DNA from: Azolla caroliniana
Taxonomy: Eukaryota > Plantae > Polypodiophyta
Length of the DNA: 12,852 nucleotides
Assembly: GCA_043228905.1 (NCBI GenBank)
Contig: JBHGNT010001024.1
Location: forward strand, 1-12,852
Reading direction: 5' to 3'
Shown: positions 1,282 through 12,852 of the stretch, in pieces
Layout of the letters: each line of letters opens with the position of its first letter
Numbering within the stretch: position 1 is the first letter of the stretch
Position numbers and translations under genes: made by a program
The notes under the pieces: generated by a model
What the model was told of the DNA's origin: nothing
What the model saw: only the letters and a program-made list of their open reading frames with translations
Databases searched by the model: none

Positions 1282-1562
1282 CCCCTTATGGGGAATGAAT
1301 GAAACATGAATGAACATTTCTCTCTAATCTCTCTCTCTTTGACACCTTTTCTCTTCTCTCCCCCTCTCTCACGTTGAACCCCCTTGGGAGGGGGGTGGAG
1401 CCATTCTAGGCACCACCCCCCACCCCGCAATGCTTCTCTATATGATCTCTCTCCACCATCATACTCTTCATCATCTTTGCTATTTCACCATGTCTATCTT
1501 CGTCATCGTTAACCATCATCATCCTTAACCCTAACCCTAACTCTAAAACCTACAACACCTTT

Positions 1563-1573
1563 TGGCGACCACA
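1563..1573 (+). other. Primer-binding site of element A, probably tRNA-Arg(UCG)
   Basis: TGGCGACCACA lies 5 nt after the LTR end and is complementary to ...UGUGGUCG-CCA, the 3' end I recall for plant tRNA-Arg(UCG). Not database-checked. Confidence 0.75.
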
Positions 1574-3006
1574 ACGACGGACCCCCTTTGATGAAGAAGT
1601 CCAAGAAGAGAACGTGGCAGCATGATGTGCGAGAAATGACAGAAACATGCAAATGACGGCGACGATGTTCAATGTATGTGCAAGCGAAGAAATGGAAACG
1701 ATGACGTTTGTGTACGAGTGCAAGAAATGATGATGCGATGGAGGAATGCATGAATGGCAACAATGGTTGTGCGAGGTTGCGATTAGTGTCAATGTGCGGG
1801 TTTCCGATGCGGTTAGCGACAATGTGCGTGTTTTTGAAAGCGTGGTGCAAGATGCACGGCTGTACAAACTGCGATGCAGTGGGAACCGGTGCCAGCACGA
1901 CCGGAACGAAGAAGCCCACCAGGAGACTGCGGAGAAAGTCGCAGTGTGTGGTGCGAAGACCGGCAGGATGTGCTGAGAATGCACGAGAGGTGGTTCTAAA
2001 AGAAGCAACACAGAGAGAGTCGGAACCGGAATCGGAACCAGAACCGGAGCCGGTTAACACTGAAGGGTCGAAGAAGACCCAGACATTGACCAACAAAGAA
2101 ACCAACAACGCAGACCAGACATCTACGACCAAAGAAACCAACAACGCCAGAAAGAGACGATCGGATGCACCAGACAAAGACAGACAAAGACGACGAAAAG
2201 AGACTACTCAAACAGACAGAAAGAATGGAACAACGAAGGAGAAACACGACTAGAACAAATGCTAAGAACCAGTACAACAAAAACAGGACCACATGTGCCC
2301 TCTAGGTCATCGTCATCAACTGGGAAAGCAGAAAAAAAAAACAACTGCGACCGGAGCGGCAACCGACCAAAATGGCTAGATATGGGAGCAGCCGGACAAC
2401 ATTCAAACTGACTACCGGAAAACCGGCCGGAACAGACCAGAAGACGACGGACGGTGCCGGACTACGACAAACCAACAGAGGAACGAAGGCCGGATGGCCA
2501 CCGTATGGGAGCGGTTGAAGCACGGCGGAAGAGCGACCGGTATGGCGGCCAGAATGCGGGACAAATGGCCGAACGACGACGACGCTATACGGCAGAGGCC
2601 GGACAGCGGCGGCGAATGGCAACCCGAAACCCTACACAACAGTCAAAGAGTGGCCGAAGAGTAGCGGCCAGATTGTGTGCAGAGCGGGCAAGCGACGGAC
2701 GAGGTTGGACTATGACGAACCGGCAGAGACGACAACAGAAACGGAAACAGGGCTGGATGGAAAGGCGCCGGACAAGACCGAACAACTCGAGTGAAGGACG
2801 AATGGCGACAGAAACGACCGGAAAGCCAACGACCGAACGGAGAACGGTGATGAAGACGGAAGATGACGGGACGGTTGCAGAGATGGAGAGACAACCAGAG
2901 TGGTAACGGTCGGCACAGTGACAAAGCAATGACCAGAACGGACCGGACAACCGGACAAACGACAAAAACGACCGGAAAGACGAAGGGACGACCGAACATG
3001 CCAAAT

Positions 3007-3103
3007 GGACGAAGCGGCCGAACAACGATAGTTGGAGACAGGGACGACCGACCACAACAGTGAGGGAGACAGGGACGAAGCGGCCGAACAACGATAGTTG
3101 GAG
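3007..3103 (+). repeat. 31-bp direct repeat in the interior of A
   Basis: GGACGAAGCGGCCGAACAACGATAGTTGGAG at 3007-3037 and 3073-3103. Confidence 0.85.
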
Positions 3104-3720
3104 CAGTGCCCCGATTGCGGCCGAACAGTGGCGGCCAACAAACGAACATACAATCGACAATGATGAAAGAGAAGAAGAAGATGAAGAAGAGAAGAAGGAA
3201 GGGAAGGAAAAGAAGAAGCACAAGAGGTGTTGGCGGCCAGACAACCGATGGTCGTAAAGAATAGAGACAGCTGGACAGAGATGGCAGACCATAGAATGGC
3301 CGGACAGGGCCGACAGAGACGGCAATGACGCCAAACGATGGCAGAACAGGAACGGAAAGCGGCGGCTGGACAGCCACGTCCGAGCATCGGAGGACACTGA
3401 TGGCAACGGCGATGGACCCAGAGACGGAAACAGAAAAAAAAAAAAACAGAGACCGAGACGGAGATGAACAGAGAAGGCCGTACAAACACACAACGACACA
3501 CAAAAGCAGAGCGTGACAGCCACGGACAATGGACATAGAATAGCGGTGGTGAAAGAAGGAAGAAAAACGAGAAGAGAGGATGAAGATAAAAAGAAGAGAA
3601 AGATGAAACAGAATCAGAAAAGAAGAAGAAGAAACAGACAACGATAAGAGAGAGAAAACGCAGAAAACAAGAATAAGAAGAAACAAGAGAGGAAGAAGAA
3701 AAAGCAAGAAAGAAAACACA

Positions 3721-3842
3721 AAAAGAGAGGGGGGGGGCATGTAACAAATATTGAAACCCTGAGGGTACTGAATGAAATTGTCAAAATTCGAGGGTATGTA
3801 ATAAAAATTTTAAAACTTGAGGGCACCGACGAAATTGTAAAA
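3721..3842 (+). repeat. Degenerate ~29-bp repeat (4 units, alternating a-b-a-b)
   Basis: GAGGG cores at 3727, 3761, 3790 and 3819, each preceded by an A run. Units 1 and 3 continue YATGTAAYAAA; units 2 and 4 end GAAATTGT. Confidence 0.6.
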
Positions 3843-4091
3843 ACTCATCCACCTAGAGAAATGGATGTGATCAACAACGACAACTCACACAAAATTAAAG
3901 GAAGATACACATACACACAACATTTTTGGACCCATGACGAAGTTCGTAAGTCGACAGAACGAGAATGTTCGTGTCGCGGAAGATTTGCTGACCAACAAAG
4001 ATGGTCGAGTCAAGCACTCCGATCGAGGGAGTCAATCGTTGAAAGGACCGATGGAAGTTTTGGTCGAAGAAATATCATCATCAAGGCATGT

Positions 4092-4129
4092 GGGATCGAC
4101 GTGCAAGGCACTTTCCCACGGGCGTGCCA
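4092..4129 (+). other. tRNA-Arg 3'-end-like motif (PBS on the - strand) at the expected PPT position of element A
   Basis: GGGATCGACGTGCAAGGCACTTTCCCACGGGCGTGCCA ends 5 nt before the 3' LTR and is 34/38 identical to the reverse complement of 8901-8938. Confidence 0.8.
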
Positions 4130-4134
4130 TATTG

Positions 4135-4647
4135 TGTTACCTTGTATGAGATGTACGGAGAGTCAAGTGTGATGATCGAGGGTCGAATGTTATCATGATG
4201 TTGTTGTGTATGTGTAGGAGGCATAAATGTAATTGTGAGTCTATACGTATGTGAACACATGCACACACGTGTGTGCATGTGGATGGATACGAGGAGGTGT
4301 GAGTGAGTGTCCAGTATGAATGCTCAATGGGGCTTACACCCTATGTATCTACCCCCTCTTGTACTATTTAACCCCTTATGGGGAATGAATGAAACATGAA
4401 TGAACATTTCTCTCTAATCTCTCTCTCTTTGACACCTTTTCTCTTCTCTCCCCCTCTCTCACGTTGAACCCCCTTGGGAGGGGGGTGGAGCCATTCTAGG
4501 CACCACCCCCCACCCCGCAATGCTTCTCTATATGATCTCTCTCCACCATCATACTCTTCATCATCTTTGCTATTTCACCATGTCTATCTTCGTCATCGTT
4601 AACCATCATCATCGTTAACCCTAACCCTAACTCTAAAACCTACAACA
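4135..4647 (+). repeat. 3' LTR of element A
   Basis: Matches 1045-1557 except C1057/T4147 and C1524/G4614 (by-eye comparison). Confidence 0.95.
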
Positions 4648-8474: not shown

Positions 8475-8479
8475 GCCGT
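8475..8479 (+). other. Target-site duplication GCCGT; second copy is ACGGC at 1040-1044 (GCCGT on -)
   Basis: Joining 8479(+) to 1039(-) with one GCCGT copy restores CAT TGG GAG GCC GTC AAA CAC ATT TTC AAG TAC = HWEAVKHIFKY in frame. Confidence 0.9.
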
Positions 8480-8898
8480 TGTTATTCGCTAGCCGGACAA
8501 GGCCTAACACAAGGTGTCACGGAGACACTTCACCAAAGGGTGATTACGGCATAGAATTAAGATTCAACGATTACAACGACTTACGTAGGTTACACGATTA
8601 GATTGCTTTGGTTAATTACACGCGTAAGATACAGCAGTAAGTACAGAACGGAAATCAAGACAGAAGTACAAACATCATAAGCTCTATTAATTATCCGCTG
8701 CGATTACAATGGGGTCCGGGCCTTTAAATAGGTTTCCGGCCCGTAGTACAAAACGGTGCCTATCGCACCTATTCGGGATCCGTCCGGATCTGGAACGGCA
8801 TACCGTTTCCAGTCCGTCCGTCCACACTATGCTCATTTACAACCATATTTAATTAATTCCTTCACTCCGTATTTTGGACTCCTTGCCGGCCGGTAACA
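8480..8898 (-). repeat. 3' LTR of element B (419 bp)
   Basis: On - it reads TGTTACCGG...GCGAATAACA (TGTTA/TAACA terminal inverted repeat). TATTTAA on - at 8724-8730. It interrupts the copia RT exactly at 8479/8480. The partner LTR is not in the window. Confidence 0.85.
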
Positions 8899-8900
8899 CA

Positions 8901-8938
8901 TGGCACGCCCGTGGGACAGTACCTTGTACGTCGAACCC
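8901..8938 (-). other. tRNA-Arg 3'-end-like motif (antisense PBS) at the expected PPT position of element B
   Basis: Element sense reads GGGTTCGACGTACAAGGTACTGTCCCACGGGCGTGCCA-TG-LTR. On + it reads as a PBS, TGGCACGCCCGTGGGAC. Confidence 0.8.
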
Positions 8939-8950
8939 TTCTTGGCCCCT

Positions 8951-11886
8951 TCATTGTTTACCCAAATTGTCCAAATTACTTTGTTCCAGAATTTCCACTT
9001 GTTCTTCCGGTTGTGGTTGCTGCGGCTGTGCTTGCTGCTGCTGCTGTGGTTGCGGTCGGGACTGAGGCTGCTCCGGCTGCTCTGCTTGCTGCTGCTGCTC
9101 CGTTTGTTTCTCTGACTCCGGCTGCTCCGTTTGTCTCTCTGACTCCGGCATCTCCGTTTGACTGCTTCCGGTCCGGTCTCCTTCCAGTAACGGTTCCTCA
9201 TCACTAAGGTTGACCGTAACCGGTTCCCGTGATTTCTCTTCCCGGATCCGGGACCTCTCATAGCTTTCAAACTGGATCTGCGCCTCCAGCCTATCGTCGT
9301 CCAGCTGAGCTACAAGTTGCCGGACTTGCTCTAGTTGGTCCTCCGCCAAGGCTTGAAAGTCTTCGGCCAGCTCATCTCTTATGCCGGTGAAGTCTTCGGA
9401 ATTCAGCATATAGCAATCATCTCCCTCCTTCCGCCGGTTCTCAACGTCGGCCCGGAGCAATTGGAGTTCCGCCGCGTTCGTGGCCCACTTGGTCCACCAT
9501 TTGACGGACCCGTTGTCAATCAAGCTCTTGGTCTGGTTCAACCAGGCCCGCATGATATCCTGGATGCGACTTGCTCCCATTTGTGCTCTGCTTTCCACCA
9601 CTTGTCGCTCCTCCTTCAACTGCTTGATGAGATTTGCCGTATCCTCCGCCTACTCTCTGTAGCACGTCAGCTGCCCTTGATATGTCGTTTGCAGCCTCTG
9701 CAGTACCTCCGCCGCTCTTTCTTTTTCCGCCTGCTGTTGCCTGAGGAGCTCTGTCCGAACCTTCTCCGCCTCTTCCAACCGTCTTCTGGTTTCCGCTTGT
9801 TCCTTGGCGAATGCGATTGCGGTCTGATCAACTGCTTGCCGGAGCTCATCCGTCCGTTGTGCTCCGTTTGCAACCGTTTATACTCTCGGTGCAATTGCTC
9901 AAATTCCTCTGTTTTTTGTTTGAGCTTGCCGTTGATCTGGCGATGGTTCCGGTCTTCCCGGTCCTTTACCTGCCGGAGTTCCTCTTTCAGGCGCTCTACT
10001 TCTGTTTCGGCGTTCCTTCGGAGCCTGTCCTTCTCTTGCAGCATTTTCTCCTTCTCCTCCTTGAGCCGGTCGTACGCTTGGTGGCCTTTCCGTAAGCTCT
10101 CCTCGGCCCGGCGTAGGTTCTCAGCAGTCTTTTTGAGTTCTGCCTCCGCTGCCGTCTTCAATTCTCTTTCGCGGCTCCTCAGCGCTTCTTGGGCAGCTAG
10201 CTCATCCTTTAAATCCGCAAGCTCTTGGGCTTGTGCCGCATTTCTCTCCGGAACGGTTTCCGTTGCCAGGGTCTGATTGCTATGTACAGGTTGATCTGCC
10301 GCTTTATTCTGTACATTGCCCGGAGTCACCGGTGCTTGGACTTGTGTTGTCAAAGCCAATTGAGCCATTTCCCTTGTGACCTTGTCCAAGTCTTGTTCAA
10401 GGCTCCGGATTCTGGACCGGGCCGTCTCTAGATCTACGGTTGTGACGAGCAACCGTTCGTTGTGCGCTCTCTCCTCCGCCTCTATGTACTCGACCGCTCC
10501 GGCGATCTGCTCGCCTACCCACCGTAGCCACATGCTACTGGTGCCTTGCTGCTGTACTGGTCCTACTCCTTGGCCGCCGTGTGTGCTGGCTGGGCTCGCC
10601 GGCTGTTGAGTTCCGGTTCTCGCCGTCTCTGGAGCCGTTGGAATGACTTCTTCTATAGAAGCCGTCGAGGCCGGTTCCATACGCACCGGTTCTGGTTCCT
10701 CCCTTGTGGTTTGCTCAGGTTGAGTTGGGGGCGTTTCTTCCTCTTGCGGGCACGAACGCTCCCCCGCTGTCCCGGCGGTCCTACTTCTTGACCGTCGTTG
10801 GAGGTGCTCTTCTGGCTCCTCCGTTTCCTCTTCCTGGGTAACGGCCTGTTTCTGTGCCGTCAAGGGTTCCGGTTCCTTCTGTCCCGGTCGCCGTATGGTT
10901 ATCTTAACGGGTCGGACCGGTGACACCTCCTCCAGTTCTGAGAGCCGTTTCTTCCCTTTCGTCACCTTCGACGCCAGCAGCTGCTGTCGTTTGGACGCCG
11001 GCTTCGAGGTGCTTCCTTCCGATACTCTTGGCCGCTTCTTTGGCTGGACGGTCTCGACCGGCGGCACGAGCAATGTTATCCACTGAGCTACGGCGTGCCA
11101 CAGCTTCCGGCCCTCCTTGCCGTCCTTTCCTCGTACCATGTCGATTGCCGTGCACAAACCGTCTGCAATCAACACCGGCCAGTCCACCTTGATCCCTTCA
11201 TAGGTGGCTATGATCATCCCTGCCCGATTTTTTGGCATGACAGGGGGTCGGGGGTACACGTGGCCGTACTCATGGAGCACTCGAGCTATCTCCCTGAATA
11301 GCGGATCTTCGCCGCCCTGCGTCCGATAGCCTTTGCCGGCAACAGAGTACTCACCGAAATATCGGATGAGTTGCTCCGAGGTTGGGTTATCGATCTGGAA
11401 GATACCTCCCTCCGGAAGGCCTGTTAGCGCACGGATCGCTTCCTCGGTGATGACCTCTGTGGCGAGCTCCTTGATGACTCGGTCGGCTTCTCTGTGCGGC
11501 GGTGCCTCCATGATGGCCAAGAACCCCTCCAGTCTGTGTTGCCTGAACCATTTCCTGGCCGCTTCCGACAGCGTTTGTGGTTCCATGTCTGCCTCGAGGT
11601 CGAGGGAAGATGGCGAGGTAGAGTGGTGATGAGAGTGAGAGCGAGAGAGAGAGCGTTCCGGACGTGGGGGTTCTCTGCGTGCAGGTTCGCGTTTGCTCAG
11701 CTTCCACTGCCTTGGTGCTTTTGTGCTTCTTGGCTCGCGAAATGAAAAGGTCTCCATGCGTTCTGCTTCTTCTTTGTGCGTTTTGGCGCCTTTTTCGAGC
11801 ATGCACACGTCGTGTACCAATTTAGTATTAAGTAGCGTGGCGGCTCTTAAATGCCCACTTCGTACCTTTTCGCTCCTTGCTTTCAC
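8951..11886 (-). pseudogene. Extra 3' ORF of element B (~950-980 codons when repaired): plant-transposon-protein-like domain, disordered linker, long coiled coil, Q/P/E-rich tail
   Basis: ORFs 9667-11886 and 8951-9619 join through one frameshift near 9860 (other frame reads QRTDELRQAVDQTAIAFAKEQAETRRRLEE...) and one TAG at 9650-9652. Motifs ITEEAIRALTGLPEGG and GIKVDWPVLI. Confidence 0.75.
9098..9160. repeat. 27-bp tandem repeat (2.3 copies) next to CAG-rich low-complexity sequence in the ORF tail
   Basis: CTCCGTTTGTYTCTCTGACTCCGGC at 9098 and 9125, partial at 9152; encodes PESE(R/K)QTEQ. Confidence 0.8.
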
Positions 11887-11972: not shown

Positions 11973-12852
11973 TTACACATCCGTAGGTCCCTTCGGACCC
12001 TTACCGTTTTCCTTACGGGTTGCCGTGTCTTCTTTCACCTCTGCTACGGGTTCCCCGTTGTCTTTTTCTTCCATCCGTACCGTTCCCGGTATAGTGCCGG
12101 TGATCTGCATAAACGGGTTCTTTGGCATCGGTCCTTTATAGGGCTTTAGTCTAAATCCGTTCATCCACTTGCCTAGTACTTCACCGGCAAGTGTCCCTAT
12201 CTAATAGGACCCGTTGTATTCCCGTGTCAGCCAATACGGGCCTGTCCATCTGAACCGGAGTTTACCCGGCATCTTGCCCATCCTTGTTTGGAATACTAGA
12301 ACCGGTTTTCCGATTTCGAACATCTTTTCGTTACCTTTCCGGTGACGGTCAACGAACGCTTTCCGTCGTCGTTGCTCCAGTTCCATGTGTAGGATGCTGG
12401 CCAGCCGTTGCTCCTCCAGTTCGCATAGTGCTGCTAGCCGCATTTCTTCCGACTTCTTTTCATTCAGCCGTTCCCGTAGTTGGATCCGTAAGCTTGGTAC
12501 CTGAAATTCCACCGGCATGACCGCTTCTAAGCCGAATGCTAACCGGAACGGCGTTGTCCGGATACTTGTTTTGTATGCCGTTCGGTACGCCCATAGCGCG
12601 CTATGGAGCTTTGTATCCCAGTCCGTCCGGTTTTCATTGACGATTTTGCGGAGAATGTTCTGCAGCGTTTTGTTGGTGGACTCTGCTAACCCGTTCGCTT
12701 GTGGGTAGTACGGTGTGCTCCGTTTATGGACCATGGCATAGAACGTTGTTAAGCTTTCCACTACCTGGCCGAGGAAGTGCCCTCCTTGGTCGCTGATTAA
12801 TTCAATCGGACATCCATATCGGCACCAAATGTTCTCGTACAGGAATTTTGCT
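11973..12852 (-). pseudogene. pol: Gypsy pol C-terminus: integrase core and GPY/F module, one premature stop
   Basis: RYGCPIELISDQGGHF...STPYYPQANGLAESTNK...LWAYRTAYKTSIRTTPFRLAFG...KLRFRWTGPY...SY*IGTLAGEVLGKWMNGFRLKPY. The TAG at 12201-12203 is in frame with ORF 11973-12164. Confidence 0.92.

Follow-up and report, generated by a model that had tools for sequence, protein, structure and literature searches.

A structured tRNA-Arg(UCU)-like site before the 3′ LTR of Ty3/gypsy-type retrotransposons, a likely variant of the LTR replication signal

Results

Elements at the locus

The window, by which we mean the whole stretch of DNA analysed (12,852 nt of an Azolla caroliniana contig), is eukaryotic retrotransposon DNA. 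A copia element, with gag and reverse transcriptase (RT) recognized by Pfam, is interrupted by two other elements, here called A and B. Element A lies on the plus strand, with a 5′ LTR at 1045–1557, delimited by alignment to 4135–4647, and a 3′ LTR at 4135–4647, which has TG...CA ends and differs from the first at 2 of 513 nt. No gag-pol was found in its internal region (1558–4134, +), and the element is non-autonomous and non-coding. An ordinary sense primer binding site (PBS), TGGCGACCAC, is found at 1563–1572 (+), 5 nt past the 5′ LTR. We take its tRNA to be an Arg isoacceptor other than UCU.

Element B is present in the window with one LTR, two extra ORFs and an integrase end, all on the minus strand and pointing at the LTR. 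Its 3′ LTR (8480–8898) is full length, as judged by alignment to relatives in which the LTR is followed by a PBS and gag. The second extra ORF (8951–9619) and the first (9667–11886) read toward the site described below and had no Pfam match; both are kept across families, with 28–66% identity in the matched segments. The integrase end of a gypsy pol covers 12000–12851 and has an internal stop at 12201.

Element A has no target-site duplication of its own. An identical 5-bp target repeat (1040–1044 and 8475–8479) adjoins the left ends of LTR A and LTR B, and the copia RT is cut at one point, with its halves in opposite orientations. The cut and the common repeat look like the result of an inversion tied to integration, or of a double insertion at the same site followed by recombination. 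LTR A holds a perfect 26-nt palindrome (1166–1191, 4256–4281). The start of LTR A (1045–1058) has 11 nt in common with the B-type hairpin sequence (8919–8929), which is not seen in other families; pairing of a hairpin arm with the LTR start was dropped as an explanation, as it fits family A only.

Two copies of a tRNA-like site

The site before the 3′ LTR of element A spans 4089–4129, and its copy in element B spans 8901–8938. The 39-nt arms 4092–4130 and 8900–8938 differ at four positions (4095, 4103, 4109 and 4113), a match far above chance (blastn E 1e-9). On the minus strand of element A, the proximal block (4115–4129) is the complement of tRNA-Arg(UCU) nt 76–61, with one G missing opposite C65/C66. 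It is followed by the bases facing tRNA nt 60–59 and an A that is invariant in 82 of 82 aligned sites among the matches listed (4112–4114, −), a covarying hairpin with a 4-bp stem and a 3-nt loop (4101–4111, −), and a distal block (4089–4099, −), complementary to nt 58–48 with one mismatch opposite nt 54. Five nucleotides (4130–4134, +) separate the CCA end of the site from the LTR. In element B the same parts are read on the plus strand: the proximal block (8901–8917, nt 76–59, one base missing), the hairpin (8919–8929, GTAC/GTAC) and the distal block (8931–8938, nt 58–51).

A sequence-only reading of this DNA had described a PBS-like block split by a small hairpin, GTGC-AAG-GCAC in copy A, which is present at 4101–4111 (+). 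The hairpin it quoted for copy B, GTAC-AAG-GTAC, is also there, as the reverse complement of the plus strand, which reads GTACCTTGTAC at 8919–8929. Two of the four differences, 4103 and 4109, form one compensatory change of a G-C to an A-T pair, as had been noted. At the other two, 4095 and 4113, copy A departs from the tRNA; position 4113 pairs with 4100 in most relatives, not in copy A. Without its 13-nt insert, copy B equals tRNA nt 51–76 less one of C65/C66, hence the earlier remark that it is 1 nt shorter than a real tRNA was correct, and so was the placing of the insert after A58, against the tRNA-Arg(UCU) of contig L002 (below). ARAGORN found 0 tRNA genes in the window, and Rfam gave no tRNA match there (no cloverleaf, no 5′ half).

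Collection of related sites

Relatives were collected by a metagenome scan in which the LTR end and a 15-nt core were fixed, and the hairpin and the distal block were left free; this gave at least 120 loci. Together with the window there were 124 matches among those listed, of which 105 were family-like and 19 were excluded on visual inspection as unrelated, since they shared neither the hairpin nor the distal block nor the start of the LTR. Six of the 105 listed family matches were cut by contig ends, which left 99 full-length sites, 82 of them distinct. These 82 listed sites fall into 28 clusters by LTR or flank similarity and form the rows of alignment A1; five sites with a hairpin indel were kept in A1 but omitted from the column statistics. 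Conservation of the 15-nt core and its missing base was predetermined by the scan pattern, and the distant element L121, found without the pattern, has no missing base.

Nearly all family loci came from one assembly series, so that many element families but probably few hosts were sampled. The module was covered by contigs of sequencing runs from organisms coded A, B and C, and also A, E and F (887, 7 and 3 contigs; a fourth run gave none), and many run contigs end at both of its edges. No relatives were found among viral contigs, either by pattern or by protein, and Rfam holds no family for the site. The elements are those of plants, with ferns or mosses as the likely hosts.

Covariation of the hairpin

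In A1 (82 rows, among the matches listed), five pairs were formed in 92.9% of 410 cells, compared with 74.9% after shuffling, and there were 70 double changes, compared with 22.8. The paired fraction, the number of double changes and the covariation score were each reached by 0 of 500 shuffles of these listed rows. The covariation, for which the sequence-only reading had named a larger alignment as the test, thus holds. For two further measures, which count pairs or pair types, 30 and 22 of 500 shuffles did as well, and slid controls paired at most 41.5% (A1, listed matches). Ranked by corrected mutual information, the three highest of 120 column pairs among the listed matches were stem pairs, and these three stayed among the first five whenever a single row was drawn per cluster (1000 of 1000 draws; 51 listed rows, 23 clusters). 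The stem is a perfect 4 bp in 76 of the 99 listed sites, with seven different stem sequences, and the hairpin loop takes 10 forms among the listed matches.

On a tree of the second extra ORF (31 rows, among the matches listed), a quick tree with modest support from which changes were read by eye, there were at least six separate double changes. T-A turned to G-C at least twice and G-C to A-T at least twice, and the outer pairs changed at least once each, all among the listed matches. Double changes were few at the innermost and outermost core pairs (1 and 2; A1, listed matches).

The structure extends beyond the stem. Among the listed matches, a pair joins the base opposite tRNA nt 59 to the one that follows the stem (C-G in 50, A-T in 13, T-G in 7, T-A in 1, unpaired in 11), one further pair switches from A-T to C-G in two clusters, and the invariant A is bulged in the hairpin structure (82 of 82 sites). 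The structure therefore spans the bases facing nt 58–60. The hairpin had been placed at the boundary of tRNA positions 58 and 59; it does lie near there, but the boundary is not a clean one. RNAalifold on A1 (listed matches) gave a slightly different consensus, with three hairpin pairs and three T-stem-like pairs. Overall, the site is real, conserved and structured.

Match to tRNA-Arg(UCU)

ARAGORN, run on 60 of the listed family loci, recovered a tRNA-Arg(UCU) with encoded CCA at L002:1190–1265 (71 bits with Rfam). This reference is one retro-copy from a related contig, not a gene of the window's genome. Its complement follows the site over nt 76–61, with one G missing opposite C65/C66, and then over nt 57/56–47. 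The two-block match described earlier stands, but the plain proximal stretch of ~18 nt does not, as it consists of 11 nt, a one-base bulge and 5–7 nt. Likewise the distal block does match the T arm, but is not limited to the 8 nt first given to it, and in most of the listed relatives extends to nt 48–47. Over nt 56–49, at least 6 of 8 positions were exact in 80 of the 82 listed sites and in 17 of 640 flank control windows under the same scoring, which confirms the T arm of the same tRNA as the match.

Opposite U55, 62 of the 82 listed sites have A and 20 have G, both of which pair with U. A U-pairing base is found opposite U48 in 70 of the 82 listed sites, and a mismatch opposite nt 54 in 13 of them. 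By cluster, among the listed matches, G stands opposite U55 in 3 of 28, and opposite U48 there is G in 7, T in 4 and C in 5; once relatives are grouped in this way the wobble signal is modest, and C-to-T wobbles can be methylation decay. The distal block covers T-loop and variable-loop positions that are unpaired within the element.

Duplex modelling, which had been suggested as a check, was in line with the two-block arrangement. With RNA-RNA parameters as a proxy for the RNA-DNA hybrid, co-folding with the tRNA kept the hairpin in 67 and paired the distal block in 74 of the 82 listed sites, with a median gain of −11.7 kcal/mol. The longest unbroken helix with the tRNA was 10–12 bp in 74 and 13–15 bp in 8 of these listed sites. 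We infer that the tRNA may pair with the site in trans.

Copies of tRNAs were seen at two loci. The tRNA at L002:1190–1265, CCA included, is joined straight into the second extra ORF of the element, in the orientation of a minus-strand primer, and likely arose by read-through of the whole primer followed by a template jump. Three tRNA-Lys-like copies, two of them decayed, lie beside an LTR of the lineage in L059 (1063–1135, 2112–2183 and 2756–2828); they may represent a tRNA cluster, SINE-like repeats or an insertion near tRNA genes.

Position, orientation and the 5′ PBS

Family ORFs were found on the internal side in 32 of 101 listed loci, and in all 32 they read toward the site (0 away). In four listed loci gag is found past the LTR, in the same orientation. 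A gap of 2 nt separates the CCA end from the LTR in 82 of the 99 listed sites, and one of 4–8 nt in 17. Spacers of 5′ PBSs are also 2–7 nt, so the geometry of this end mirrors that of a PBS. No polypurine tract (PPT) abuts the 3′ LTR: in the last 48 nt of the 82 listed sites, the longest purine run has a median of 4 and a maximum of 8. Purine runs of at least 10 occur 48–140 nt upstream in 30 of 78 listed sites, compared with 18 of 78 further in; the excess is mild, and such runs do not abut the LTR.

In 18 listed loci the far LTR end is followed by an ordinary sense PBS. Its type is Arg(UCU) in 10 of the 18 (10–13 nt match, one of them decayed) and another in 8, as in element A. Since the 5′ PBS is not complementary to the 3′ site in these 8 listed loci and in element A, the site is not a self-primer, and general self-priming or cyclisation through the element's own PBS was rejected. 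Family-conserved sequence follows the sense PBSs (1563–1572 and relatives) and may hold further tRNA contacts. A TATA-like motif was found on the coding strand in 13 and on the opposite strand in 4 of the 18 listed LTRs. One locus, L056:959–1616, is a fold-back: the U3 half of an LTR is duplicated in inverted orientation (73% identity), with a site on either side.

Lineage and a distant relative

The closest integrases to that of the window were assembly proteins with 94–70% identity. P0003, 86% identical to the window integrase, is a whole gag-RT-RNase H-integrase polyprotein without a detected chromodomain. No archaeal RNase H family of Pfam was found in P0003, P0006, P0049 or P0001. In a quick integrase tree (85 rows, built without labelled reference elements, Rhodiola rows thinned to 4 and short hits removed), the window falls with proteins of Adiantum and Riccia, and those of flowering plants lie elsewhere. 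The Ty3/gypsy features found were the order gag, RT, RNase H, integrase (P0003 and L121), direct TG...CA LTRs and a tRNA PBS. The elements belong to a Ty3/gypsy lineage with relatives in ferns and liverworts, and the site is their 3′ end signal.

Integrase similarity (60% identity) was the sole criterion by which L121 was found, with no motif used. This complete element has LTRs of 1.65 kb, a single long extra ORF and the gag-RT-RNase H-integrase order, and its flanks agree at 3 of 5 target-site positions. The 5′ end has an 18-nt uninterrupted PBS-like run in sense orientation. Two nucleotides before the 3′ LTR there is a tRNA-like end that agrees with the L002 tRNA at 13 of 15 positions and has all its bases; CpG decay or a different isodecoder could account for the two differences. 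A hairpin of 7–8 bp, unrelated in sequence, stands in the same place as in the window, and is followed by a gapped match to nt 55–51 and 48–43. No polypurine tract was found just upstream of the 3′ LTR of L121. The other integrase hits among genome contigs, L122 and L123, were weak. The covariance model R1 missed the L121 site, which means that R1 will not find distant families. This complete retrotransposon of plant type lies on a 79-kb contig that had been assigned to a bacterial genome bin, likely through contamination.

Discussion

A tRNA-identical end on the coding strand, stopping 2 nt before U3, has the look of a plus-strand primer site. We therefore propose, with a probability of roughly 0.6, that the site replaces the polypurine tract, and that a second host tRNA-Arg(UCU) would bind the minus-strand DNA there and prime the plus strand. 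Judged from its sequence, the site is likely a new variant of LTR replication signal with a role in a tRNA-primed plus-strand start. The wider proposal is that of a widespread LTR lineage of seed-free plants without a polypurine tract, in which both strands would start from host tRNAs and a three-way junction with the template hairpin would bridge m1A58 and shield the primer from RNase H; we give it slightly better than even odds.

In the proposed course of events, minus-strand DNA would be primed at the 5′ PBS as usual, and RNase H would remove the RNA from the new minus-strand DNA. The tRNA-Arg(UCU), or its 3′ half, would then anneal through nt 76–61, with one base bulged, and pair again through nt 57–47 as the T arm opens. 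The DNA hairpin would loop out across nt 58–60, where m1A58 is incapable of a Watson-Crick pair; the accessible text of PMC13191261 likewise describes m1A58 as blocking base pairing. RT would extend the CCA end over the 2–8 nt spacer into U3, and the cDNA ends would be mirror images, which integrase would trim back to CA on both sides. A tRNA on DNA would be a substrate of RNase H. The bulge and the hairpin would keep the hybrid stretches short and may protect the primer, which is speculation; for Ty3, the accessible part of PMC5371799 gives a distance of ~13 bp between the two active sites.

Pairing between the two T-stem complements is possible, and a single long hairpin is a frequent outcome when either strand is folded by itself, so a structure in cis also fits. 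The RNA of the element could fold as a mimic of a tRNA 3′ end, with a T-stem carrying an inserted helix and a free 10-nt CCA tail, survive RNase H as a polypurine tract does, and itself prime the plus strand. The site does lie on the strand and at the place of a polypurine tract, 3 of the 6 examples folded form the long hairpin on the coding strand, and the invariant bulged A and the extra pairs 17–30 and 16–31 are structure within the element. We nevertheless consider this unlikely. T-loop features are not conserved: the A58 equivalent is gone in 15 of 51 listed rows, and of the 82 listed sites 20 have C for U55 and 14 have a change at U54. Spacing to the hairpin varies by 0–3 nt among the listed matches, ARAGORN and Rfam found no 5′ acceptor strand and no whole tRNA in the window, and the site stays Arg(UCU)-like where the 5′ PBS switches tRNA. 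Minus-strand A-to-G changes, small in number, break coding-strand pairs and keep tRNA pairs. A single base and the hairpin distinguish host tRNA from element RNA, so the primer sequence would separate these two leading models.

Quite improbable, in our view, is a reversed polarity, in which an antisense transcript would be packaged, the two-part site would be the first-strand PBS, as in Ty1, and the short sense PBS would prime the second strand; tRNA would still be the primer for both strands. TATA-like motifs lie more often on the coding strand (13 versus 4 of the listed LTRs), the single read-through tRNA of L002 (one event) is oriented as a primer at the sense PBS, and the sense PBS of L121 is long and uninterrupted. 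On the other hand, the sense PBSs of the window's families match just 10–13 nt, and the 3′ site is longer, two-part and wobble-tolerant, like the first-strand sites of Ty1 and Ty3 as far as they are set out in the accessible parts of PMC5371799 and PMC3592414. The site might also bind a tRNA or a fragment, or form its hairpin, for packaging, placement of an RNase H cut, pausing or processing of the end by integrase, with the plus strand primed otherwise. Extension from the CCA end is deduced from sequence and position, and the mild purine-run excess further upstream would suit such a role, which we hold to be very improbable: a CCA end 2 nt from the LTR in 82 of the 99 listed sites is placed as a primer end would be, and the LTR has no other feature next to it. 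Elements of this kind do capture tRNA copies, as in L002, and the site could be a neutral relic, such as the end of a tRNA once captured, part of a SINE, the PBS of an inverted element nested there, or a B-box for polymerase III. This is hardly credible, as the site is kept across 28 listed clusters with diverged LTRs and flanks, contigs break off on both sides of the module, and compensatory changes recur; covariation already largely refutes it. A B-box, with its consensus presumed from general knowledge, would be disrupted by the insert and by the variants at 54–55.

If the host-tRNA reading is true, it would reveal a second means of initiating the plus strand and of defining the left cDNA end. 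With the covariation, what was a suggestive motif becomes a defined structure for which compensatory pairs are already available. Such elements may be missed or inverted by annotation tools that demand a polypurine tract or take orientation from the PBS. Our literature search, which left subscription papers, Repbase reports and preprint supplements mostly outside, found no tRNA site in place of a polypurine tract, and a prior description is possible; 10-nt motifs of the site gave unrelated primers only.

Plus-strand priming from the polypurine tract is treated as common to retroviruses and LTR retrotransposons in the accessible parts of PMC5371799 and PMC13191261, and the known variety sits in minus-strand priming. 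The elements studied here share with this canonical scheme the LTRs, the PBS after the 5′ LTR and a signal a few bases before the 3′ LTR, but this signal is a tRNA-identical end with a hairpin and not a purine tract. The bipartite PBSs of Ty1 and Ty3 are alike in that two blocks match the acceptor end and the T arm of one tRNA (accessible parts of PMC5371799, PMC3592414 and PMC11381356), with a small internal loop between the blocks in Ty1. According to the same parts of these sources, those sites lie on genomic RNA and start the minus strand, and a polypurine tract is present, whereas here the complement is found only on the minus strand, at the position of the polypurine tract and besides a sense PBS. 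In 32 of 32 listed loci the site is antisense and before the 3′ LTR, and is thus not a bipartite PBS on the coding RNA. The primer activation signal and the primer over-extension sequence of HIV-1 also have extra complementarity to the T arm and T-loop beyond m1A58 (accessible part of PMC13191261). Their role differs from the one proposed for the site, as it lies with the minus-strand primer and plus-strand transfer rather than with the start of the plus strand; that part of the source describes no covarying spacer hairpin.

Among plant elements, Athila, Tat/Ogre/Retand, Phygy and Selgy share the gag-RT-RNase H-integrase order, the lack of a chromodomain and extra ORFs after pol, as far as the accessible text of PMC6317226 goes. 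By the same text, Ogre/TatIII has a tRNA-Arg PBS, as do 9 of the 18 listed loci with a 10–13 nt match and one decayed. Tat has an archaeal RNase H, which the lineage studied here lacks, Athila has a tRNA-Asp/Asn PBS, which is not so here, and Phygy has a tRNA-Trp PBS and no extra ORFs, neither of which holds here. In that survey the search for PBSs was confined to the 50 bp that follow the 5′ LTR. In the Dictyostelid element Skipper (accessible part of PMC5006619), one priming signal is likewise replaced by the mirror image of the other type: Skipper has a polypyrimidine tract in place of the PBS, and the elements described here have a PBS-type site in place of the polypurine tract.
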